Shown here one piece after another: positions 17,108 through 28,563 of a DNA stretch of 31,749 nt. The notes beneath the pieces were generated by a model, which did no database searches, was not told the DNA's origin, and saw only the letters and a program-made list of their open reading frames with translations. This DNA comes from a virus (Duplodnaviria > Caudoviricetes): positions 1 through 31,749 of the IMG/VR virus record IMGVR_UViG_3300010398_000027, one strand, 5' to 3'. Positions within the stretch are counted from its first letter, which is position 1. Every line of letters starts with the position of its first letter. A program made the translations under genes and the position numbers.

Positions 17108-17992
17108 CTACTTGACCGCCAGAAGCTTGACCGTCCAGTTGCTCGAGTTGGTCGTGGCCGCGGCCGCCTCGTCCGCTTCCAGGCGCTCGAACATGCCGTA
17201 GATGGTGTCCATACTCACGATCCAGCTGAGATCCAGCGGGCTGTACCAGGTGTGCGTCGTCGGCTGGCGCTGGATGGCCTTGAAATAGTGTGTCTTCGAC
17301 CAGAACGCGCCCGTGGCGTTCGGCGCGGTGCCCGCGAGCAGCTGCGACTCGTACACGTCGGCGCCGTAGATCTTGCCCACGCGCGCCTCTTCGACCGCGG
17401 TGCCGCCCTCGTCCTGGCCGACGTACAGCATGTTGGTGAATTTCTCGAGCTTGAGGAAACCCGAGTAGGTGGCCGGCGGGACGACGATGTACCACGGGCG
17501 GGGCGCGGCCTGGTTGCGCAGCAGGGTGCGCGCCTGGATCAGGTTGTCGTCGGTCAGCTCGGCGCCGTTGGTGCCGACCGAGTTCGTCGCCGCCGAAAAC
17601 AGGCTCGCCGCGTCGACGTCCATCTGGCGCGCCAGGGCGTAGGCGCCGGCTATCGTCGTCTCGGAGCGGATGTCGTAGCGCGACTGGATCTCGGCGATGT
17701 CCTCGATTTTCTGGGCGATGGCGCGGTGGCCGTTGGTCATCGGCAGCACGAACTGCTGCGACGTTTCGGTGATGGCCTGCGGCGTGAGCGGAGTGCCGGC
17801 CGCCTTCGCGTTGGCGGTCAGGTTGTGGCGCGACGGCAGGTTGATGGTGTTGGCGTGCTGGTCGACGAGCGCGCTCTTGTCATCGAACAGCGCGGCGACG
17901 ACGACGTCGTATTGAATGGCGCGGTTGAGTTCCGGCGACCAGACCTGATCGATGAACACCGCCGCGGTGGTGATGGTGGTTTCACCAGCCAA
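17108..17992 (-). CDS. Major capsid protein (HK97 fold, P22-coat-like)
   Basis: GGAGG SD, TTG start; FIDQVWS, TINLP, AYALARQMD, VGKIYGADVYES, DTIYG; follows scaffold. Confidence 0.88.
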   Translation of the reverse strand: MAGETTITTAAVFIDQVWSPELNRAIQYDVVVAALFDDKSALVDQHANTINLPSRHNLTANAKAAGTPLTPQAITETSQQFVLPMTNGHRAIAQKIEDIAEIQSRYDIRSETTIAGAYALARQMDVDAASLFSAATNSVGTNGAELTDDNLIQARTLLRNQAAPRPWYIVVPPATYSGFLKLEKFTNMLYVGQDEGGTAVEEARVGKIYGADVYESQLLAGTAPNATGAFWSKTHYFKAIQRQPTTHTWYSPLDLSWIVSMDTIYGMFERLEADEAAAATTNSSNWTVKLLAVK

Positions 17993-19074: not shown

Positions 19075-19305
19075 ATGCAACCAAAGACTAGCGTTTTTCT
19101 CGCCGAGGGCATCGTTATCAGTGCCGCGTTGGTTCTCATCGCCGTCCTGGTGGTCGCGTTCAGTCCGCTGCTGTGGACCGACCACCTATTCCACAACAGC
19201 AACCAGCTCATACCCGCCAGCTGCTCGATCACGACGCCCTTGGGGAATGGCTACGTTGGCGTGGCACACTGCCCAGTGTGGGCGAACTGGCAACCTGCCA
19301 GCTAA
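19075..19305 (+). CDS. Moron-like small membrane protein on the opposite strand
   Basis: AAGAAGG SD; TM helix GIVISAALVLIAVLVVAF; two Cys in the C-terminal part. Confidence 0.6.
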   Translation: MQPKTSVFLAEGIVISAALVLIAVLVVAFSPLLWTDHLFHNSNQLIPASCSITTPLGNGYVGVAHCPVWANWQPAS

Positions 19306-22300
19306 GCCGCGCCCAGGAGCGACTGCATGAGCGCGCGGTGCTGGGCGTCGCGCCGCATTTGCTGCTGCAGCAGCATCTGGGTACTGGCCACGTCTGGCCC
19401 GTAGCCGACCACGGGCGCGAGCACACCCGTCGGCGTCGCACGCGCCAGACCATTCCTGCCGACGTCCCGCAGCAGCATTTGACCCGCTGCGGTCGAGGCG
19501 ACCTGGTCGATATTCTGCAGCGCCGCGCGCTGGGCTACCGGGGACATCTGTTGCCACCGATCCGAGCTCACCAGCGTCCCGGCGGCCCGCTGGATGATCT
19601 GGCCGCGGTACTGCTCATACGTGAGCCGCTCCTGCGGCGTCAGCCGAATCTCGTGCATCGGGCCGTACGGGATGCTGTCCGGGGTCGCCGACGGCGCCAC
19701 GCCTGCGGCTTGCATCGCCCCCAGGATAGGGCCGGGCGTGCCGGGCGCGGTGCGCACCGGGACCAGCTCGCCGAGTCCCTGCAGCGGATTGGCGAGCTGC
19801 CGGCCGAGCACGTCCTGTCTGGCCGGCAGGTTCTCGCGCAGGCCGGGGATGTTCTGCAGGACGTTCTCCACGACGCTCTGGGGCAACTGCTGGGATGTCT
19901 GCGCCTGCAAAGCCTGGCGTTGAAGCGGATCGGTCATCTGCGCGATCGACCGCACCAGGCCGGACTCGGGCACCAGGCCGCCGAGCACGCTCGAGGCGAC
20001 GTCCGTGGCGCCCCGTAAGCCGGTAGCGGCCACGCCGCCCGACTGCAGCGCGTCGTACAGGTTGGCAAACGTGCGCATCGGGGTCGCCGAGGCGAGCTGC
20101 TGGCCGACCTCCGAGACGAGCTGCGCCGCGGCCGTGACGCGCGGATCCTCGATGCCGTACGCCTGCGGACCGGCGGCCTGCTGTTTGGCGGTTTGCTTGT
20201 TGTAGGCCTGCACCGCGTCGGCGTACGCGCCGGCCATCATCATCGGTCCGCGCAGTTGGGGGGGCAGCTTCTCCCAACTGTGATAGGCGCCGTCGGGTCC
20301 GACGAAACTGTTGGGCTGGTTGCCGTCGCCAATCCACACGCGCCGCTCGCCCGGATCGGTGGGCCCGTTGCCGGTGATTGCGCCGCTAGTCGCCTTGCTG
20401 GCCAGCCAGACGCTCAGCGCGGTGCCGATCAGGTTGTTGGTGAGCCGCTCGCTGAGCGGGCCCACCGCGGTGCCGGCTGGCGTGGAGCCGAGCCCGGCCG
20501 CGTACGGGCCACGCCCGGCGAGGCCGCGCGCGACGTCGACGGCCGTGCCGGCCAGGCCCAGCGGCGAGGTCTCGACCATGCGACTGGCGAGTGCCATGCC
20601 CATGCGATACACGGGGAACAGCGCATCACCGACAGGTCCCGCGTTGGTGACGAACCTGCCGAAGGCGCTCGTGAGCGTGCCCAGCTCGCCGCGGGCCGCC
20701 GCGCGATCGCCCATGGCGACGGCTCGTGTGCTCGCGGGCTGCCCGAACTGGCGCTGGAACTCCGCGAACCAGTTGGCGCCGCTGTGGCCGGCCGCGGACG
20801 CCGCCTCGCCCGCCTCGGCGCCGTGCTCCATGCTCTGGATCAATTGCGAGGTGGCGTTTTGAAACGCGCCGTGCAGCGCCCCGGCGCCTTCGAACAGGTT
20901 GGCGAGCACGCCCGGCAGGCCACCCCCGGCGCGCGCCGACAACGACGTGGGCCGCGCCAGACTGTCGCTCAAGCCCTGGAGGAAATTGTCGGTCCAGTTG
21001 ACCAGGCCCGATTGCGCACCCAGCACGCGGCCTTGCAGTCGACCCGGCTGGAAACTGGCCAGGTCGCGCACGGCGCCCGTCACCCCGCTCAGCATGGGCG
21101 TCAGGCTAGCGTTGAAGGCGACATCGGCCATCGTGTTCAGACCACTGATGACGCCGCCCTTGTACAGACCCTGCAGCCAGTCGCCGAGCGTCGGCGGCGC
21201 CAGACCCGCGGCCGCGCCAGCCGCGCGCGCGCGCGCCACGGCACCCGGCACGCCCAGGGCGACATCCAGGCCAGGTCCGCCGGCGAGCGCGCCGAGACCC
21301 GCGGCGCCGGCGACTTTGAGCCAGCGGTTGGGATCGTTGGGGTCGGTCGTCTGGTACGCGCCGAGGCCGCCCGCGGCACCGCCACCGAGCGCGCGCGCGA
21401 ACGCTACGTTGGCCGCGGCGGGTTGGGCGCCGCCGAACGGCGCGCCTGCTCCGCCAATTTCACCCGGCGCTGCAACGCCTGCTCGTGGCGCTCCCGGATA
21501 CGGCGCGCCGCCTGCTGGAGTCGCTGCTGCGGACTCGGCTGCTGGGCCACCTAGATCGAATGGTAGCGCCTCGGCCGCCTGCGCCCCAGGTCGGAAGAAC
21601 GTGGCGTTCGGGTTGTCCTCAATGCCCTGTGACGCTTCGGCGATTTGCTGCTGCTCGGCCTGGAGTTGCGCGAGCTCGACGCGCGCGTCGGACAGCGTCT
21701 GCTGACCGCCGCCGAAGGTTGGCCGCACCTGCTCGCGGGCGTAGCGCAATTCGCCGCTGCCCGAGACGAGGCCGACGCGCTCCCACCAGAGCGGGGCGTT
21801 CGCGTCGACGCCGTGGACGCGCGCCAGCTCGCGCAGCGCGTTGTTCGTCCAACCCACAGCCCAGGGTGGACGCAGGACCCCGCCGCCGCCGCCCGCGCCG
21901 GCGTTGTAGACGTCGCCGCCCAGACGATTCTCGAGCTCCGCAATGCGCGCGTCGTTGGCGTCGTAGCGGTCGCCAAGGGTGTTGAGGTGGTCCACGACGT
22001 CGTCGATGGCCATGGGCGAGGCGCCGGGCGCGGTTTCTGTCAGGAGCGAGAATGGATTGACCGGACGCGCCGGTGGCTCGCGACCGGCGAGCGTGCCCCG
22101 CAGCGCGTCCATCATCGCCTGCAGATCGGCCTGGACTTCGCTTTGCGGGCGCGCGATTGGTGCCGCGGGCTCGCGGCCCGCGAGCATGTTCTGCAGGCCG
22201 GTGAGCACGTCGCTGGCGGCCTGCGGCGGCGGGGTGACCACGGGCTCGAACTGGTTGCCGGCGGTGCGCACGAACGACGTCGCCTCGGGATGCGCCGCGG

Positions 22301-24884
22301 CCGCCGCGGCGTAGCTATTCGGCGTCCCCTCGAGCGGCGCCGTGGGCTGGAAGCCTACGCGCACGCCGTACGGGTCGTAGGCGATGCCGGGCGTCGGTTG
22401 GAAACCCTTCAAGACGCCGTACTCGTCGTAATTGGCGGGATTCCTGAGCAAGTCGTCAGCTGCGATGCGCCGCTCCGCCTCGGCGTTGATCGACCGCACC
22501 AGGTCGTCTTGGGCGATGCGTTGCTGGGCGGCCGCGTTGATCTCGTCGAGCAGCTGCTGCTGGTGCGTCGCGGCGGTCTCGAGCCCGACCGCCGCCGGCG
22601 GCGCGATCGGCGACGGTCCCGTGCGCAGGCGTCCCAGCAACAGCTCCTGCAGGTTGGGCATCTCGGGCATTTCGAGGCCGCCCACGGCGAACTGAGCCTG
22701 CTGGTAGCGCTGCCGGTCCTCGGGCGTCATCACCGAGGGATCGACCGACATCGTCATCGGCTGGCCGCCGATCGGCAGGCTGAGCGCGCCCGGCGTGCCC
22801 GCGTACTTCTGGTTCAGGTCCGAGATCGCCTGCATCGAGTCCAGCACGCCCATGGGCATGTACGGCCCGAGCGTTGAGCTGAGGTCCTGGCCCAGGCCGC
22901 GCAGGTTCTGCATGAAGGCCGGGATGGGCCCGTTCTGGCTCAGATCGGTGACCGACTGCGGGCTGCTCAGGTACTGGCCCAGATCGAGCGCCTTGCCGCC
23001 GATGTTGGGGATGCCCGAGGCGGTGAGCGCGTTCGACTGCAGCAGGTCGTTGACCGTGGTCGGTATCTGCTGCACGCCCTGCGACAGCTGGTCCTGCAGC
23101 GACTGCAGCGACGAGGTGGGCGGCGGGCTGCCACCGACGTCGAGCACGGCGCGCGTGATGTCGTCGATCTTGCCCTGGAGCGCGCCCGTGGCACCGCCCA
23201 GGATGCTGCCGACCAGGCGCTGGCCCTGCTCGAGCAACGGCTGCTGCAACGCGCCCGGCTGCGGCGCGAAGCTACCCGGCGGCGTGACCAGGCCGCCCGG
23301 CACGCCCGGCAGCGGGTGCGGGCTCTGACCCGGCCCCGGCAGGGGAATGGACACCGGCCCGATGTTGAGCGAGCGAGCCGTCGTCGACTGGGCAGTACCG
23401 TCGGATTGCGCCAGAGGATGATCGGCAAAGATGGCCGCGCGCGCGCCGCCGTGCGACTGGGGCATGCCGTTGATCTGGTCGGGCGTCATCCACTCGCTGC
23501 CGCCCTTCAGGTCGGTGCCGCTCGTGCCGACGTGCAACTGGCCGGTCTGGGCGTTGTAGCCGTCGACGTAGTAGTAGTGCCCCGGCGTGTCGATGATGAC
23601 GGGGTTGCCGCCCGCGGCGTCGCGGCCGACCGTGGCCCAGTCGACGCCCTGCGTGGCGTGCGCGTCCACGCCCATCGCGTTCAGCAGTTTGACCTCGGAG
23701 CCGACGCCGGCCATGCCCTGATCGGGATTCCAGCCGACCTGCTGGGCGAGCTGCTTGGCCTCGGCGACCGTCGGGTTGCGACCGTACGTCTGGGCGAAGG
23801 CGATCGCCGCGGTCGGCCCGCAGAACGCCATCGCGTCGCCGCTCGAGAGCCCCAGGCCAAACTGCGAGGTGCGCGTGGCGACCTGCGACTTGGCGGCGTC
23901 GATGGCCGTGTTGACCGCGCTCAGGCCCTGCTGGGCGACATCCTTGGCACCACCCAGAATCGTGTTGACGTAGCGCTGCGTCTCCGCAAACGGCGGCACG
24001 CCAGCGTACTGGTCGACGTTGCCTGGTCCGGCGTTGTAGGCGGCCAGGGTCTTGCTCCAGTCGCCGCCGTATTTCTGCAGGTTCTGGGCGTCCATCTTCG
24101 CTGCGGCGTCCAGCGATTGCTGGGGATTGGTCGGGTCGATGCCCATGCCCTGCGCCGTCTGGGGCATGAACTGCGCAATGCCGGTCGCGCCCGCCGGTGA
24201 CTTCGCACTGGGATTGAACCCGGATTCTTGCTGGATCTGGCGCGTGAACACCTCGGGGTCGATGCCGTACTTCGCCGCGGCCTGGCGCGCCTGGTCGATG
24301 TAGTCGCCGGGCGTGGCGGACTGCGGACCCGCGGGCACCCCGGGCGTAGTCTGGGGGGTGCTGGGAGGCCCGCCAGACACTTGCGGCGCCGGAGTGGGTG
24401 GTGGACCGCCTGGTGGCGGAGGCGTGGGCTCAGCGGCCTGTGCGGCGCCGCCGAGCAGCTTCTGCATCTGCTGGCCGACCCAGTCGGCGCCGGCATTGGT
24501 CAGATCCGTGGTCTGCGACGGGGTGGAGGGCTGCGCCACCGGCGCTGGTGGTGGCGCCTCGGGCGTGGGCGTCGGCGGTGGAGGCGTGGGGACCGGCGGC
24601 GCGGCCGCTTCTGCTGGCGGGGCCACCGGTGGTGGCGTGGGCACGCCGCCGGGTACGGGTGCCGGCGTCGGCGTGGGCATCGGCGCCGGGGTTGGCTGGG
24701 CGACCGGCGCTGGCGACGGCGCGGCCTGGGGAACCATGGCCTGCACCTGGCGCATGGCCTGCTGCATCTGCTGCTGGGCCCAGTCCTGGCCGGCCTGCAC
24801 GCGCTGCTGCTGCTGCTGCAGCCACAACTGGCCGGCACTCTGCAGGTAGTCCTCGGTCGGCAGCCAGATGCCCGTGCCCGGCAT
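19302..24884 (-). CDS. Large internal virion/ejection protein with lytic transglycosylase and C39-like peptidase domains
   Basis: SLT motifs QESGFNPSAKSPAGATGIAQFMP...LAAYNAG...ETQRYV; FCGPTA...HYYYVDGY; 1860 aa. Confidence 0.85.
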   Translation of the reverse strand: MPGTGIWLPTEDYLQSAGQLWLQQQQQRVQAGQDWAQQQMQQAMRQVQAMVPQAAPSPAPVAQPTPAPMPTPTPAPVPGGVPTPPPVAPPAEAAAPPVPTPPPPTPTPEAPPPAPVAQPSTPSQTTDLTNAGADWVGQQMQKLLGGAAQAAEPTPPPPGGPPPTPAPQVSGGPPSTPQTTPGVPAGPQSATPGDYIDQARQAAAKYGIDPEVFTRQIQQESGFNPSAKSPAGATGIAQFMPQTAQGMGIDPTNPQQSLDAAAKMDAQNLQKYGGDWSKTLAAYNAGPGNVDQYAGVPPFAETQRYVNTILGGAKDVAQQGLSAVNTAIDAAKSQVATRTSQFGLGLSSGDAMAFCGPTAAIAFAQTYGRNPTVAEAKQLAQQVGWNPDQGMAGVGSEVKLLNAMGVDAHATQGVDWATVGRDAAGGNPVIIDTPGHYYYVDGYNAQTGQLHVGTSGTDLKGGSEWMTPDQINGMPQSHGGARAAIFADHPLAQSDGTAQSTTARSLNIGPVSIPLPGPGQSPHPLPGVPGGLVTPPGSFAPQPGALQQPLLEQGQRLVGSILGGATGALQGKIDDITRAVLDVGGSPPPTSSLQSLQDQLSQGVQQIPTTVNDLLQSNALTASGIPNIGGKALDLGQYLSSPQSVTDLSQNGPIPAFMQNLRGLGQDLSSTLGPYMPMGVLDSMQAISDLNQKYAGTPGALSLPIGGQPMTMSVDPSVMTPEDRQRYQQAQFAVGGLEMPEMPNLQELLLGRLRTGPSPIAPPAAVGLETAATHQQQLLDEINAAAQQRIAQDDLVRSINAEAERRIAADDLLRNPANYDEYGVLKGFQPTPGIAYDPYGVRVGFQPTAPLEGTPNSYAAAAAAHPEATSFVRTAGNQFEPVVTPPPQAASDVLTGLQNMLAGREPAAPIARPQSEVQADLQAMMDALRGTLAGREPPARPVNPFSLLTETAPGASPMAIDDVVDHLNTLGDRYDANDARIAELENRLGGDVYNAGAGGGGGVLRPPWAVGWTNNALRELARVHGVDANAPLWWERVGLVSGSGELRYAREQVRPTFGGGQQTLSDARVELAQLQAEQQQIAEASQGIEDNPNATFFRPGAQAAEALPFDLGGPAAESAAATPAGGAPYPGAPRAGVAAPGEIGGAGAPFGGAQPAAANVAFARALGGGAAGGLGAYQTTDPNDPNRWLKVAGAAGLGALAGGPGLDVALGVPGAVARARAAGAAAGLAPPTLGDWLQGLYKGGVISGLNTMADVAFNASLTPMLSGVTGAVRDLASFQPGRLQGRVLGAQSGLVNWTDNFLQGLSDSLARPTSLSARAGGGLPGVLANLFEGAGALHGAFQNATSQLIQSMEHGAEAGEAASAAGHSGANWFAEFQRQFGQPASTRAVAMGDRAAARGELGTLTSAFGRFVTNAGPVGDALFPVYRMGMALASRMVETSPLGLAGTAVDVARGLAGRGPYAAGLGSTPAGTAVGPLSERLTNNLIGTALSVWLASKATSGAITGNGPTDPGERRVWIGDGNQPNSFVGPDGAYHSWEKLPPQLRGPMMMAGAYADAVQAYNKQTAKQQAAGPQAYGIEDPRVTAAAQLVSEVGQQLASATPMRTFANLYDALQSGGVAATGLRGATDVASSVLGGLVPESGLVRSIAQMTDPLQRQALQAQTSQQLPQSVVENVLQNIPGLRENLPARQDVLGRQLANPLQGLGELVPVRTAPGTPGPILGAMQAAGVAPSATPDSIPYGPMHEIRLTPQERLTYEQYRGQIIQRAAGTLVSSDRWQQMSPVAQRAALQNIDQVASTAAGQMLLRDVGRNGLARATPTGVLAPVVGYGPDVASTQMLLQQQMRRDAQHRALMQSLLGAA

Positions 24885-24890
24885 GTCGAC

Positions 24891-26576
24891 CTACGCCAGC
24901 GTCGTCCGAGCGATGGGTGCCTGTTGGCCGACGCGCGACTGCGCGTACTGGTTCATGAAACTGGGCAGGCTGTAGCCGGCGGCGCCGAGGCCCGAGCCGA
25001 AGGCCTGCATCTCGTCCGGCGACATGCGCTCGAGGCTGCCGGGCGCCAGGCCCTGGGCGCCGCGCTGCGCGATGCCGCGGATTGTGTTCAGCGTCGAGGT
25101 GTAGTCCCAGCCCGGCGTGGCCGACGTGGGCGTCGTCTGGCCGGCACCGGTCTGATACAGCGCGGGCGTGGCGAGCGCGCCGGGCGTCCAGCCCGGTTGC
25201 GTGCCGCTCGAGGTGCCGCGGATGGCGCCGCTCGGGGCGACCTGCTGGTTAGGGTTGTAGTTCTGATCGGCGACCAGCGTGTTGGGATTGGCCAGATCGC
25301 CCTGCATGGCGCCCATCTGCATGTAGCCGGTGGGCGCGTTCGGGTTGTACGTCGCCTGGCCATAGTTGGCCGTGGGGCCGAGCCTGGTGCCCGACGGGTT
25401 GGCATACTGCGCGAGCGACGCCTCGGGCGTGGTCCAGCTCGGTGTGGTCGTGCCGCCCATCTGCCCGATCAGGCCGGCCGCGGACTGCGGCGTCGGCGCC
25501 GTCGTGCCCGTGGCCTGGAAGGCGGGCGCGGCCATGTTGTTGGCCAGGTTCTGCAGGTACACCGGCACGTTGGGATTGCCGGCCGCGCCGCGCAGATAGT
25601 TGGACAACTGGAACGTGTTCTGCGGGCCCTGCAACTGCGCCGCCGTGCTCAGGTACTGCTGACCCAGCTGCCCCTGCTGCAGCGCCAGATTCTGGTTGAA
25701 CTCGCGCGCGGCCTCGGTCGGCGCGCCCTGATACATACCCGACAGCGTGGCCGCCTGATTGATGGCCTGCAGGGTCTGCTGCCCTTGCTGCGGCACGCCG
25801 TAGGTGCCGTACATCTGCTGCAGCGCCATCGTCGGCGTGGGCCCGTTGGTGCCGTACACGAACTGCTCGGGCGTCATGCCGGCCTGCTGCAGCGCGCCCT
25901 GGACGTCACCCCAGTAGTGCTGGGCCGCCTCGGTGGGATCGCCCTCGTACTGCTTCAGATAGGTCTGCTGCGTCGAGGGGCTGGCCTTGGCAAATGCGTC
26001 ATTGACGATGTTGCCCATCGGCTGCTGGTAGAGCCCTGTCTGGGCCGCCTGATTGGCGGCGATCTGCGCCGCCTGCGCCGTGGCCTGCTGCGTCTGGCCC
26101 ATCTGCCCCTGGCCCTGCCGCAGCAACTGGAAATTCGCCGTGTCGACCTGGGGGAAGGTGTTGGCATCGACGCCCGCGGGCGCACTCGGCAGCACCACGA
26201 GCTGGCCGCCGGCCTGGATCTGGCCGACCTGCCCGGTCTGCATGTCGCGGATGTACGTGCCGGGCTGGTATTGCCACGCCTGGGGGTTGTTGAACTGCCC
26301 CGTCAGACCCGCGGCGCCCATGCCCAGCTGCGCGTACTGGCCGAGCGCGCCGAGGGTGGCCGTGCCGGCCGCGGGTTGCGTCGGCCCGCCGGCGCCCCAC
26401 TGCATCCAGTTGCCGCCGGGCGCGTTGCCGAACTGCGTCGCGTACGCCTGCGCCTGCTGCAGCGCGGCCTGCTGCTGCTGGAACTGCAGCGCCTGCAGAA
26501 ACATCTGCCACTGCTGATTCAGGCCGGCCGCGTAGCCGCCCGAGGTCTGTCCGAAGAACGTGCCGAGGGGATCTGT
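24891..26576 (-). CDS. Gln/Gly/Ala-rich internal virion (ejection-like) protein; probable non-AUG start
   Basis: First ATG (26504) has no SD; frame is open to 26597 and GGGAGG at 26591-26586 precedes CTA-ACA-GAT-CCC (..TDPLGTFFGQ..). Confidence 0.7.
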   Translation of the reverse strand, partial: TDPLGTFFGQTSGGYAAGLNQQWQMFLQALQFQQQQAALQQAQAYATQFGNAPGGNWMQWGAGGPTQPAAGTATLGALGQYAQLGMGAAGLTGQFNNPQAWQYQPGTYIRDMQTGQVGQIQAGGQLVVLPSAPAGVDANTFPQVDTANFQLLRQGQGQMGQTQQATAQAAQIAANQAAQTGLYQQPMGNIVNDAFAKASPSTQQTYLKQYEGDPTEAAQHYWGDVQGALQQAGMTPEQFVYGTNGPTPTMALQQMYGTYGVPQQGQQTLQAINQAATLSGMYQGAPTEAAREFNQNLALQQGQLGQQYLSTAAQLQGPQNTFQLSNYLRGAAGNPNVPVYLQNLANNMAAPAFQATGTTAPTPQSAAGLIGQMGGTTTPSWTTPEASLAQYANPSGTRLGPTANYGQATYNPNAPTGYMQMGAMQGDLANPNTLVADQNYNPNQQVAPSGAIRGTSSGTQPGWTPGALATPALYQTGAGQTTPTSATPGWDYTSTLNTIRGIAQRGAQGLAPGSLERMSPDEMQAFGSGLGAAGYSLPSFMNQYAQSRVGQQAPIARTTLA

Positions 26577-26604
26577 TAGCCGGTCCCTCCCTGGTGTTCA
26601 GGTC

Positions 26605-26679
26605 TGGTTGCGGGGCCAGGATTCGAACCCGGCTCAACACCTAACAGAGGTGCCATGCTACCCACTACACCACCCCGCG
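26605..26679 (-). tRNA. tRNA-like gene: fMet-type acceptor stem, atypical anticodon loop centred on UGU
   Basis: CGCGGGG TG GTGT AGTGGGTA GCAT G GCACC TCTGTTA GGTGT TGAG CCGGG TTCGAAT CCTGG CCCCGCA A CCA folds into a 75-nt cloverleaf with encoded CCA. Confidence 0.88.
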
Positions 26680-28563
26680 GAAGCCGATCATGTTGACCGG
26701 GTTGGCAAAGCCCATGTAGTTCTGCATCAGGTTGGGGATGGTCGGCACGGGCGCCGGCACATACGCCGGCTGCGACGAACCCGGTGGTGGTCCAGCGGTG
26801 GCCGGCGGGCTGCTGATCGACGGCGGGTTGAAGTAGCCCGGCGCGGCACTGAGAAAACCGGGGGGTGGACCAGCGCTCGGGGGCGGCGGCGCGGCCTGCG
26901 GATTGAAGGTCGGGCCGCTCGAGCCGCCGGCGGGCTGGCCGTTGACGTTGACGTTGACCGTTGGCTGCTGGCCGGCGCCCTGTGCCTGCGCCTGCGCCTG
27001 CGCCTGGCCCGCCTGGTGGCCGGCGGCGAAGGACTGCAGCAACGCCGGCATGGGTGGGCCCTGCGGGATCTGCACCGGCGCGAACTGCTGCGACGCCAAC
27101 CGCTGCGCCATCTCGTCCATCACCTCGCGGAACGCGGCCGCGCCGGCGGTGCTGCCCCGCGGCGCGTACTGGTTCATCGACGCCATCTGGCCGAGGGCCG
27201 CGCTGCCCAGCTGCGCGTACTGGTTCGCCCTCTGGGCCATCGCCGACTGCAGCGCGTTGGTACCGGCCATCTGCTGGCCGTACTGGTTCTGCTGATAGTT
27301 GGCCGCGGCCACGCTCGCGGCGTACGGCGTGGTGCCCGCCGTCGCGGCGCGGAAGTAATCCGCCATTGCGTCGTTGGCCTGCTTGGTCGCCTCGTCGGGA
27401 CTCAGGCCGGAGCCGGGGCCGAAGAACTGGTTGTGAATGTCCTTGATGGCTTGCAACTGTTGCTGCAGGCCGTACATCGGCCCCTGCAACTTTTCCTGGA
27501 TGCCGGCCAGCGTGGCCTGGGCCGTGGCCTGGCTGGCGGCGCCGGCGCCAGCCGCCTGCGCGGTCTGCGCGGCCTGCAGGCCCGGTGCGCCGGGAATGAG
27601 CGCGCGCTGGTAGTCGGCCTGGGCGTTGGTGAGACCCGTATCAGCAACGGACTTCCCGGCCTGGGCTCTGGCGAGGTCCGACTGCGCATCCGTCAGGCCG
27701 ACTTGCGATTGGGTGAGGCTGACATCGGCCTGTTGCTTGTTGACCAGACCAGGCAGCAGCGTGTCGATCTGTGTTTTCTGCGCCTTGAGCAGGTCGGCCT
27801 GGGCGTTGAGCTGGTCGGTTTCAGGACCTGCTTTCGCCTTGGCAATGTCTGCCTGTGTCTGCTTGAGGGCCGCATCGGCCGCAGCCGATCCGGCCTGCGC
27901 CGCGACGAGCGCCTTCTGGGTATCGGCCCCGTTGAGCAGGACGTCGGCCTGCGCCTTCGCGGTGGCCGCGTCCTGGTCGGCTTTCTTGATCTGTGCCTGG
28001 ACCAGGGCTACCTGATTGGGATCGACGGTCTTGATCGCGTTGGTCAGCGCGGTGGAGTACGCGGCGTTGGCCGTCTCGACTCGCTGTTGCGCGCTCGAGA
28101 GCGTCGAGTACGCCGACTGCAGCTGTTGCGTGGCCGAGGCGAGCGCGTTCTGCTGCGTGATGTCGCCGCCGGTGACCGCGGCCTGCAGTTTGTCGACCTG
28201 GCCCTTGGCCGCGTTGACCTGCTCCCACATCTTCGCAGCGTCGACATTGGCCTGCTGGACTTCCTTGGCGGCCTGCTCGGTGGCCTGGTCGACCGTGAAC
28301 ATGCCCTGCGGACCCTGCGGCGCGCCGATCGTCGGCGCCGTCGGCGGCGTGGTGCCCGTGCCGGGACTGGGCGGCCCCTGCACCGGTGGTGGCGCCTGCC
28401 GTTGCGACGCGTTCGGATCGACGTTGGGTGCGGTGGGCACCTGGTCGCTCGGGGCCGTGTAGGGCGTGCCTGGCCCGCCCGGTTGCGGCGCCGGCTGGCC
28501 GGTCGCGGAGTCGACCCAGACCCATTGACCGGTGGCCGGATCCTGGCGCGGAACGATCGGCAT
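26665..28563 (-). CDS. Coiled-coil internal virion/ejection-like protein
   Basis: Long Ala/Gln helical region with Pro-rich termini; its stop codon lies within the tRNA D-arm. Confidence 0.75.
   Translation of the reverse strand: MPIVPRQDPATGQWVWVDSATGQPAPQPGGPGTPYTAPSDQVPTAPNVDPNASQRQAPPPVQGPPSPGTGTTPPTAPTIGAPQGPQGMFTVDQATEQAAKEVQQANVDAAKMWEQVNAAKGQVDKLQAAVTGGDITQQNALASATQQLQSAYSTLSSAQQRVETANAAYSTALTNAIKTVDPNQVALVQAQIKKADQDAATAKAQADVLLNGADTQKALVAAQAGSAAADAALKQTQADIAKAKAGPETDQLNAQADLLKAQKTQIDTLLPGLVNKQQADVSLTQSQVGLTDAQSDLARAQAGKSVADTGLTNAQADYQRALIPGAPGLQAAQTAQAAGAGAASQATAQATLAGIQEKLQGPMYGLQQQLQAIKDIHNQFFGPGSGLSPDEATKQANDAMADYFRAATAGTTPYAASVAAANYQQNQYGQQMAGTNALQSAMAQRANQYAQLGSAALGQMASMNQYAPRGSTAGAAAFREVMDEMAQRLASQQFAPVQIPQGPPMPALLQSFAAGHQAGQAQAQAQAQGAGQQPTVNVNVNGQPAGGSSGPTFNPQAAPPPPSAGPPPGFLSAAPGYFNPPSISSPPATAGPPPGSSQPAYVPAPVPTIPNLMQNYMGFANPVNMIGFRGVV

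Follow-up and report, generated by a model that had tools for sequence, protein, structure and literature searches.

A phage tRNA that combines the acceptor stem of an initiator with a Thr anticodon, predicted to read a four-base, AUG-less start signal in tailed and filamentous phages

Analysis of a phage contig from a soil metagenome (IMG/VR record IMGVR_UViG_3300010398_000027; 31,749 nucleotides [nt], the whole of which is called the window here) revealed a tRNA gene on the minus strand (26605..26679) that stands directly in front of a gene lacking a conventional start codon. ARAGORN assigned positions 26679-26605 to tRNA-Thr(tgt), and the sequence scored 44.4 bits against the Rfam model RF00005 (cut-off, 29 bits), which places it in the tRNA family. 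The tRNA is followed by the Shine-Dalgarno (SD) sequence GGGAGG (26586..26591, minus strand), and an in-frame ACA (26576-26574) lies 9 nt past its GGAGG. The frame is closed upstream of the ACA by an in-frame TGA at 26600-26598, and the earliest in-frame ATG (26504) is located 24 codons past the ACA. Together with the A at position -1 (26577), the ACA forms the predicted four-base start signal (26574..26577, minus strand). This signal is part of the 8-mer CTAACAGA (26579-26572), which is complementary to the tRNA's anticodon loop. On both strands of the window the 8-mer occurs twice, namely at the loop and at the start site themselves, and the match between them is therefore not attributed to chance. 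The window contains 43 GGAGG sites, and only the one at the ACA opens a gene without a nearby ATG, GTG, or TTG.

The gene read from the ACA is rich in Gln, Ala, and Gly and comprises 561 codons (24891..26576, minus strand). To judge from its position, the product probably belongs to the internal virion (ejection) proteins. Neither Pfam nor PHROG yielded a family for it, and the Atlas provided, as a lead only, P22_gp7 on 13% of a cluster with a score of 0.82. A set of 82 homologous proteins was collected. The close homologs keep the same N-terminal motif, several of them behind a Met (P0014, P0020, and P0025, for example), and many others have been called from a downstream Met, as has the stored protein of the window. 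Conservation of the N-terminal 24 codons in the homologs indicates that the stretch before the ATG is coding. An assembly error at the CTA/ACA position was rejected because 12 related loci show the identical layout of tRNA, SD, and ACA. Likewise, an ATG hidden at the CTA position, which had been named beforehand as an outcome that would overturn the interpretation, did not appear: a contig from the possible source run covers 26388-26900 with zero differing letters and is not independent evidence. Read-through or hopping from the upstream gene was rejected as well, since the two genes are in different frames with in-frame stops between them.

The acceptor end of the window tRNA carries C1·A72, G2-C71, C3-G70, and A73, followed by an encoded CCA. 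The anticodon loop reads UCUGUUA, with C33 and U37. Its four-base reading face (26643..26646, minus strand) consists of U34 G35 U36 (26646-26644) and U37 (26643), in which base 34 pairs with the third codon base (34:+3) and base 37 pairs with the base at -1 (37:-1). The 11-24 pair is U11-A24, and anticodon-stem positions 29-31/39-41 are ACC/GGU (A-U, C-G, C-G), so the three G-C pairs of bacterial initiators (3GC) are absent. The cloverleaf is backed by compensatory changes over 20 aligned family members. In this alignment 95.5% of the cells were paired and two-sided changes were found at 12 of the 21 pairs; none of 500 shuffles was equally high, and slid controls reached 39 to 53%. The coordinates given in the original prediction, which was made from the letters of the window, were all correct, and every feature listed in it is present: the full cloverleaf, on which ARAGORN and RF00005 agree, the C1:A72, G2:C71, C3:G70, and A73 acceptor end, the loop, the SD, the in-frame ACA with its 8-nt complement, and the first ATG 24 codons on. 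Its caveat that the three G-C stem pairs and A11:U24 of true initiators are missing was borne out by the ACC/GGU stem and by U11-A24.

Protein and DNA scans yielded 13 distinct tRNA-bearing loci of tailed phages, including the window. The anticodon is UGU in 13/13, a GGAGG is followed by an in-frame ACA 6 or 9 nt on in 13/13, and an ATG or GTG within 12 codons is found in 0/13. At the tRNA-less loci (27 distinct, one of them cut by a contig end), an N-terminal ATG or GTG is present in all 26 evaluable cases, and five tRNA-less records, two of them complete, contain no tRNA of any kind. The base before the ACA follows base 37 of the tRNA, with U37 and A combined in seven loci and C37 and G in six. 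A quick maximum-likelihood tree of 40 proteins, which are low-complexity sequences, placed the tRNA-less loci L004, L019, and L029 among the tRNA-bearing loci; the U37 and C37 copies are interleaved, and either pattern requires at least five changes on well-supported branches. Two of these three nearby tRNA-less genes open with GTG and then a Thr codon, so the mature N-terminus was probably Thr already. The CCA is encoded in 5 of the 13 tailed-phage copies, and the distance between base 73 and the SD is 7 to 17 nt. A scan for other anticodons in the tailed-phage family, in which any loop sequence was allowed, returned eight loci, all with UGU, and a scan with the 3' half of the tRNA returned 16 loci, eight of which belong to this family. 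In viral contigs, neither querying directly with the protein nor a narrowly defined DNA pattern gave any match. Two scans of the species genome collection for the host also gave 0 matches, and no plasmid match was obtained. At one locus (L002:2977-3010), a short duplication has produced two ACA triplets after the SD, one in frame at 6 nt and one out of frame at 13 nt; the latter has the better loop match and opens 49 codons.

A BLAST search of GenBank phages with the window tRNA matched two gut inoviruses, and follow-up extended the inovirus set to 17 GenBank records. The near-copies MT135299 and PQ006147 and the weak matches MT837354 and OR464140 were left out. The 17 inovirus tRNAs have the D-arm in common, their 1·72 pair is weak, and the CCA is encoded in 17/17. 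Their anticodons are UGU, AGU, or CGU, and a putative coat-like gene, so called on account of its size, hydrophobicity, and position, opens with the matching ACA, ACU, or ACG. The distance from the tRNA to the start of this gene is 2.3 to 2.8 kilobases (kb) in 14 of the 17 records, and the two are adjacent in the other three. In the first two whole inovirus genomes, a small hydrophobic coat-like gene lies 2.5 to 2.6 kb away with a GGAGG-7 nt-ACA start, and its -1 base is complementary to base 37 of the tRNA. For nine more genomes, the -1 base plus the codon was then predicted in writing ahead of their retrieval. Every prediction proved correct, with G-ACU in three genomes, A-ACG in three, and G-ACG, U-ACG, and G-ACA in one each; two of these nine genomes have one identical tRNA sequence. 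Four further inovirus records, for which there was no written prediction, also fit. In MT135304 and MT135294, a second gene right behind the tRNA likewise begins with these four bases. Six of 10 matching GenBank records carry no annotation for the coat-like gene, and a PHROG search with four of the coat-like proteins gave no name for three of them and a weak match for the fourth (E 0.015).

Further observations were made in the inovirus genomes. In four porcine inoviruses (L249, L250, L255, and L266), two tandem coat-like paralogs lie just upstream of a zot-annotated gene. The first paralog opens at ACN and the second at ATG or TTG, which provides an internal control for the start position. 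In seven other loci (L231:1493-1573, L232:1499-1573, L235, L236, L239, L242, and L245), the tRNA lies in frame within the 5' end of a long minor-coat-like gene and apparently encodes the basic start of its signal peptide. Excision of the tRNA would thus destroy the start of that gene, and a switch between the minor protein and the tRNA that starts the coat-like gene is possible. An intergenic tandem repeat with a unit of 30 nt and about ten units was found in PQ006117 (L247, about 1751-1900). The tRNA of Arthrobacter phage Hestia (L246) was rejected as a member of this tRNA class.

Pairing between loop and start site was analyzed over 30 rows representing 27 distinct tRNA/target pairs (11 from tailed phages and 16 from inoviruses). 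The target was defined as the first in-frame ACN 5 to 10 nt after an SD-like word. Base 34 of the tRNA forms a Watson-Crick pair with codon base 3 in 27/27 distinct pairs (shuffled mean, 11.3), and base 37 does so with the -1 base, also in 27/27 (shuffled mean, 8.9). Either score was equaled in 0 of 100,000 shuffles, which ignore relatedness, and the 37:-1 pairing was supported by the tailed-phage set by itself (p=0.0019). Ten of the 12 possible combinations of anticodon and base 37 are present. Loop positions 32, 33, and 38 pair in 11, 14, and 10 of the 27 distinct cases. In the inoviruses alone, positions 38, 33, and 32 are at chance and only 34-37 pair. Of the 11 distinct cases in tailed phages, 10 show pairing at 38:-2 (eight Watson-Crick and two wobble pairs) and 10 at 39:-3, with uncorrected p values of 0.014 for 33:+4 and 0.046 for 32:+5; some extra pairing between tRNA and start site may therefore occur in the precursor of these phages. 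The four-base match covaries across both phage groups, and conservation extends to four base pairs rather than eight. The original prediction had pointed to complementarity of the whole anticodon loop and had proposed that covariation of the loop with the sequence after the SD be looked for. This covariation was found at 34:+3 and 37:-1, and the complementarity held for 34-37; as a conserved 8-base-pair feature the whole-loop pairing was rejected, since only 34-37 pair in all homologs, and the full match of 8 nt is in part a peculiarity of this genome. The codons preceding the ACN are CUA, CCA, UUC, CGG, AGG, UUA, CAG, AUU, UGC, CGC, UCC, CUG, and UUG. A role of the tRNA as an elongator at codon 2 was rejected because no shared start codon stands ahead of the ACN. 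A shifted anticodon (35-37) would give the wrong frame, and a loop re-centered on base 38 (anticodon 37-39) would have no stem, as read from the sequence.

Several features of the family are those of initiators. Position 1·72 is C·A in 13 rows, G·A in 8, U-A in 7, C·U in 1, and A·A in 1, and it is never G-C or C-G. G2-C71/C3-G70 is present in 27 of the 30 rows, and base 73 varies between A, U, and C among the family members. According to PMC7949028 and PMC11231383, a weak or mismatched 1·72 pair favors formylation and keeps the tRNA from the A site. Base 37 is a pyrimidine in 21 of the 27 distinct pairs. In E. coli, compensatory mutants have shown that the initiator tRNA in the P site pairs through its base 37 with the -1 base (PMC10018350), and in elongator tRNAs base 37 is usually a purine that makes no codon contact (PMC11231383). 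The anticodon is NGU in 30/30 rows. The invariance of G35 and U36, combined with variation at 34 and 73, fits charging by threonyl-tRNA synthetase (ThrRS); for Thr identity, the anticodon bases matter and base 73 mostly does not (PMC9976931).

These results make it probable, and we hold this with good confidence, that a processed, trans-acting Thr initiator tRNA reads the -1 base plus ACA and would start the virion protein with threonine instead of methionine. Host tRNA-processing enzymes would excise the tRNA, the CCA would be added where it is not encoded, and host ThrRS would charge the tRNA through the invariant G35 U36. By the rules that apply to tRNA-fMet, the weak 1·72 pair would allow formylation and exclude the tRNA from elongation. 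At the P site, a strong SD, which may compensate for the absent 3GC pairs, and the 37:-1 pair would jointly offset the missing stem pairs and restrict the tRNA to its own target. A four-base duplex between RNAs kilobases apart would be plausible only on the ribosome. The tRNA would be used to start one or two virion genes. In broader terms, it appears fairly likely that two unrelated phage realms, tailed double-stranded DNA phages and filamentous single-stranded DNA phages, have private N-ACN initiation by a Thr-charged tRNA, with proteins beginning with (formyl-)Thr and genes that would be silent without the tRNA. Co-occurrence and covariation lend strong support to the suggestion in the original prediction of a natural orthogonal initiator tRNA/start codon pair that gates one virion gene; the mechanism would be narrower than suggested there, with recognition of four bases, and the system has a wider distribution. 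As to the purpose, one may speculate about a phage-owned gate or a supply line for one structural protein that is independent of host fMet-tRNA. Candidates are the gating of a toxic or abundant structural protein, independence from host defenses that disable tRNA-fMet, and the setting of stoichiometry.

The following observations weigh against this interpretation. The main difficulty is the anticodon stem: the three G-C pairs at 29-31/39-41 occur in 0/30 tRNAs, and G30 is present in 7/30 and in 0/13 of the tailed-phage copies, which have C30-G40. G30 has been described as the most crucial part of 3GC in E. coli, and the "mid CG" mutant, of which the C30-G40 of the window is the counterpart, was unable to sustain E. 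coli, yet it still entered 70S complexes (PMC5389676). U11-A24, found in 20/20 aligned tRNAs, is not the purine-pyrimidine 11-24 pair of tRNA-fMet, and C2-G71/U3-A70 in three inoviruses is off the formylation set. C2-G71 is a Thr determinant in E. coli, from which G2-C71 of the window differs. When the tRNA is folded in isolation, plain energy minimization gives a structure other than the cloverleaf, although the family alignment strongly favors the latter. Since an ACN was required and the SD word list was fixed after the data had been seen, only positions 34 and 37 are tested by the covariation analysis, and 4 of 27 ATG-started control genes contain an internal match to the loose target rule as well. 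Two of the 17 inoviruses (MT135290 and PQ006171) are ambiguous, as an in-frame ATG directly adjoins their SD. In 6 of the 13 tailed-phage loci an in-frame CUG is located 3 nt past the SD, and three of these six also have a UUG at 0 nt. Finally, the similarly built tRNA of L136, which has a GGU loop, has no C-ACC target in its 69%-complete record, G001, so not every tRNA with an initiator-type acceptor and a Thr anticodon obeys the four-base rule.

The same decoding in the P site could be performed by a tRNA charged with methionine or another amino acid, in which case only the start codon would be private. The tRNA body is tRNA-fMet-like, E. coli methionyl-tRNA synthetase (MetRS) has been reported to mischarge tRNA-Thr(CGU) (PMC9976931), and CGU occurs in 8 of the 16 distinct inovirus pairs. 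However, UGU is the anticodon both in the window and in all 13 tailed-phage copies, which lack C34, and the NGU box is kept in 30/30 rows while 34 varies freely, as would be expected for ThrRS and not for MetRS. Charging with an amino acid other than Thr is regarded as very unlikely. Alternatively, the tRNA could be a regulatory switch or decoy, and host fMet-tRNA would start at a near-cognate codon (CUG or ACN) or at the downstream ATG. The CUG codons noted above are compatible with such a role, as is a predicted fold with the downstream sequence in which the tRNA region pairs with the SD/start region in 2.7% of the ensemble. Nevertheless, the 13 different codons before the ACN include no common start codon, the conserved N-terminus lies upstream of the ATG, and a four-base duplex between RNAs kilobases apart would be unstable off the ribosome. 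The start-hiding switch considered in the original prediction cannot account for the 14 of 17 inovirus targets that are 2.3 to 2.8 kb away, and a switch or decoy is judged very unlikely.

In the intergenic-region internal ribosome entry site (IRES) of dicistroviruses, pseudoknot I supports an AUG-less start by placing an anticodon-like loop on the P-site triplet and upstream bases; this mimic is part of the mRNA and uncharged. An unprocessed phage tRNA might mimic a P-site tRNA in cis in the same way, with translation from the codon after the ACA and no need of an initiator tRNA; a pseudoknot of this type was also considered in the original prediction. The tRNA adjoins its target in 13/13 tailed-phage loci and 3/17 inoviruses, the CCA is encoded in only 5/13 tailed-phage copies, and the tailed phages show the additional matches at 38 and 39 and the weak p values at 33 and 32. 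On the other hand, the invariant 38/39 matches show no covariation, pairing at 32, 33, and 38 is not conserved, and in 14/17 inoviruses, where only 34-37 pair, loop and start strand are 2.3 to 2.8 kb apart, which is incompatible with the contiguity of an IRES. The CCA is encoded in 17/17 inoviruses, and the 7 to 17 nt between base 73 and the SD would probably leave a tethered tRNA too little room on the ribosome. In a mimic, neither an unpaired 1·72 nor a fixed G35 U36 would serve any purpose. Unlike the dicistrovirus IRES, the phage element is a complete tRNA, often kilobases from its target, beside an ordinary SD, and no IRES family match was found in the window with Rfam. Because the whole-loop pairing is not conserved, a pseudoknot in cis is highly improbable. 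An ordinary elongator tRNA-Thr or an integration site that by chance lies beside a gene with a mutated start codon would agree with the ARAGORN assignment and with the frequent occurrence of tRNA genes as phage cargo and attachment sites. This explanation has next to no probability in view of the unpaired 1·72, the pyrimidine 37 in 21/27 distinct pairs, the perfect covariation with one start site, and the loss of the tRNA wherever the gene has ATG or GTG.

Engineered initiators used for comparison with the Thr initiator proposed here were i-tRNA-AAC, an amber initiator, and a CGU/ACG initiator. An amber-initiator phage biocontainment study (10.1101/2024.07.29.605542) reportedly describes one engineered orthogonal initiation system. 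Like the bacterial tRNA-fMet (E. coli metZWV/metY), the window tRNA has a weak 1·72, G2-C71, C3-G70, and A73 (PMC7949028), and its base 37 is free to pair with the -1 base (PMC10018350). In contrast to tRNA-fMet, the phage tRNA has the anticodon NGU instead of CAU, no 3GC, C30 for G30, and U11-A24; it is phage encoded, and its base 37 varies and is adjusted to a single target gene. With engineered anticodon-variant initiators it shares a changed anticodon that matches a non-AUG start codon (PMC11744186 and bioRxiv 10.64898/2025.12.21.695813), and initiators with a CGU anticodon have been reported to start at ACG in vitro when charged artificially (PMC11744186). Those initiators are laboratory constructs on native tRNA-fMet, whereas the phage tRNA occurs naturally, with a rebuilt anticodon stem and a fourth base pair, and evolves together with its target. 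It resembles the elongator tRNA-Thr in NGU with invariant G35 U36 and in the variable discriminator and differs from it in the unpaired or U-A 1·72, G2-C71 in 27/30, the mostly pyrimidine 37, and the tie to a start site. Judged from its sequence, the phage tRNA would work like an anticodon-variant initiator and falls outside both tRNA-fMet (anticodon, 3GC, and 11-24) and elongator tRNA-Thr (1·72 and 37).

In the open full-text literature, only engineered systems and no natural phage Thr initiator were found; subscription papers and supplements, possibly including phage tRNA surveys, were outside this scope. In the relevant passages of PMC8530359, inoviruses and tRNAs are mentioned in other contexts only. 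Initiation of this kind has thus likely been described so far only in engineered systems. If correct, the interpretation would provide a natural example of four-base start recognition and would show how an initiator can work without 3GC pairs. It would also supply evolved orthogonal tRNA/start pairs in 10 four-base combinations for synthetic biology and phage containment. The loci also expose a blind spot of gene calling, as ACN-started coat-like genes are unannotated and the window protein is stored from a downstream Met.

Upstream of the tRNA lies a gene for a 632-amino-acid (aa) protein rich in Gln, Ala, and Pro (26665..28563, minus strand). Its last four codons and stop codon fall within the first 15 nt of the tRNA (26665-26679, minus strand), so 5' processing of the tRNA would leave this mRNA without a stop. 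In the other 12 tRNA-bearing loci, the tRNA is located in a short spacer ahead of the SD. Downstream of the 561-codon gene, a gene with a normal ATG start (19302..24884, minus strand) encodes an internal virion protein of 1860 aa that contains a lytic transglycosylase (SLT) domain; it matched Pfam PF01464 (E 5.5e-24) and the PHROG family "internal virion protein with endolysin domain" (PHROG 342, E 1.5e-30). Between 24700 and 28700, neither a sigma-70 promoter nor a sense-strand terminator was found. Pfam and PHROG searches also revealed a T7-like major capsid gene in the window, and the nearest cultured capsids are of the cyanophage podovirus type with 20 to 30% identity. The major capsid gene (17108-17992, minus strand) has a TTG start behind a GGAGG, which is also seen in two relatives. 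Among the genes listed in a comparison with orthologs in three related records, no other structural gene was flagged.

Other unusual phage tRNAs were observed. The tRNA of L136 (L136:301-374; G001:19897-19982), from a Bacteroidales-like phage, and that of L139 (L139:300-373) are tRNA-fMet-like genes with three G-C pairs and a bulged anticodon stem. They have GGU or AGU loops, come from AT-rich phages, and stand immediately upstream of ATG-started genes that resemble each other. In G001, no ACN-started target was found. A single case of a tRNA with a CAU anticodon and U37 C38 was found at L222:1446-1525. A few bases past its 3' end stands an A-AUG that is complementary to 34-37 and shares the frame of a gene for which an SD and a TTG start are present as well. 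In L218 (1433-1523) and L229, a phage tRNA with a CUA anticodon, assigned by ARAGORN to tRNA-Pyl, has a weak acceptor end of the U1 type.

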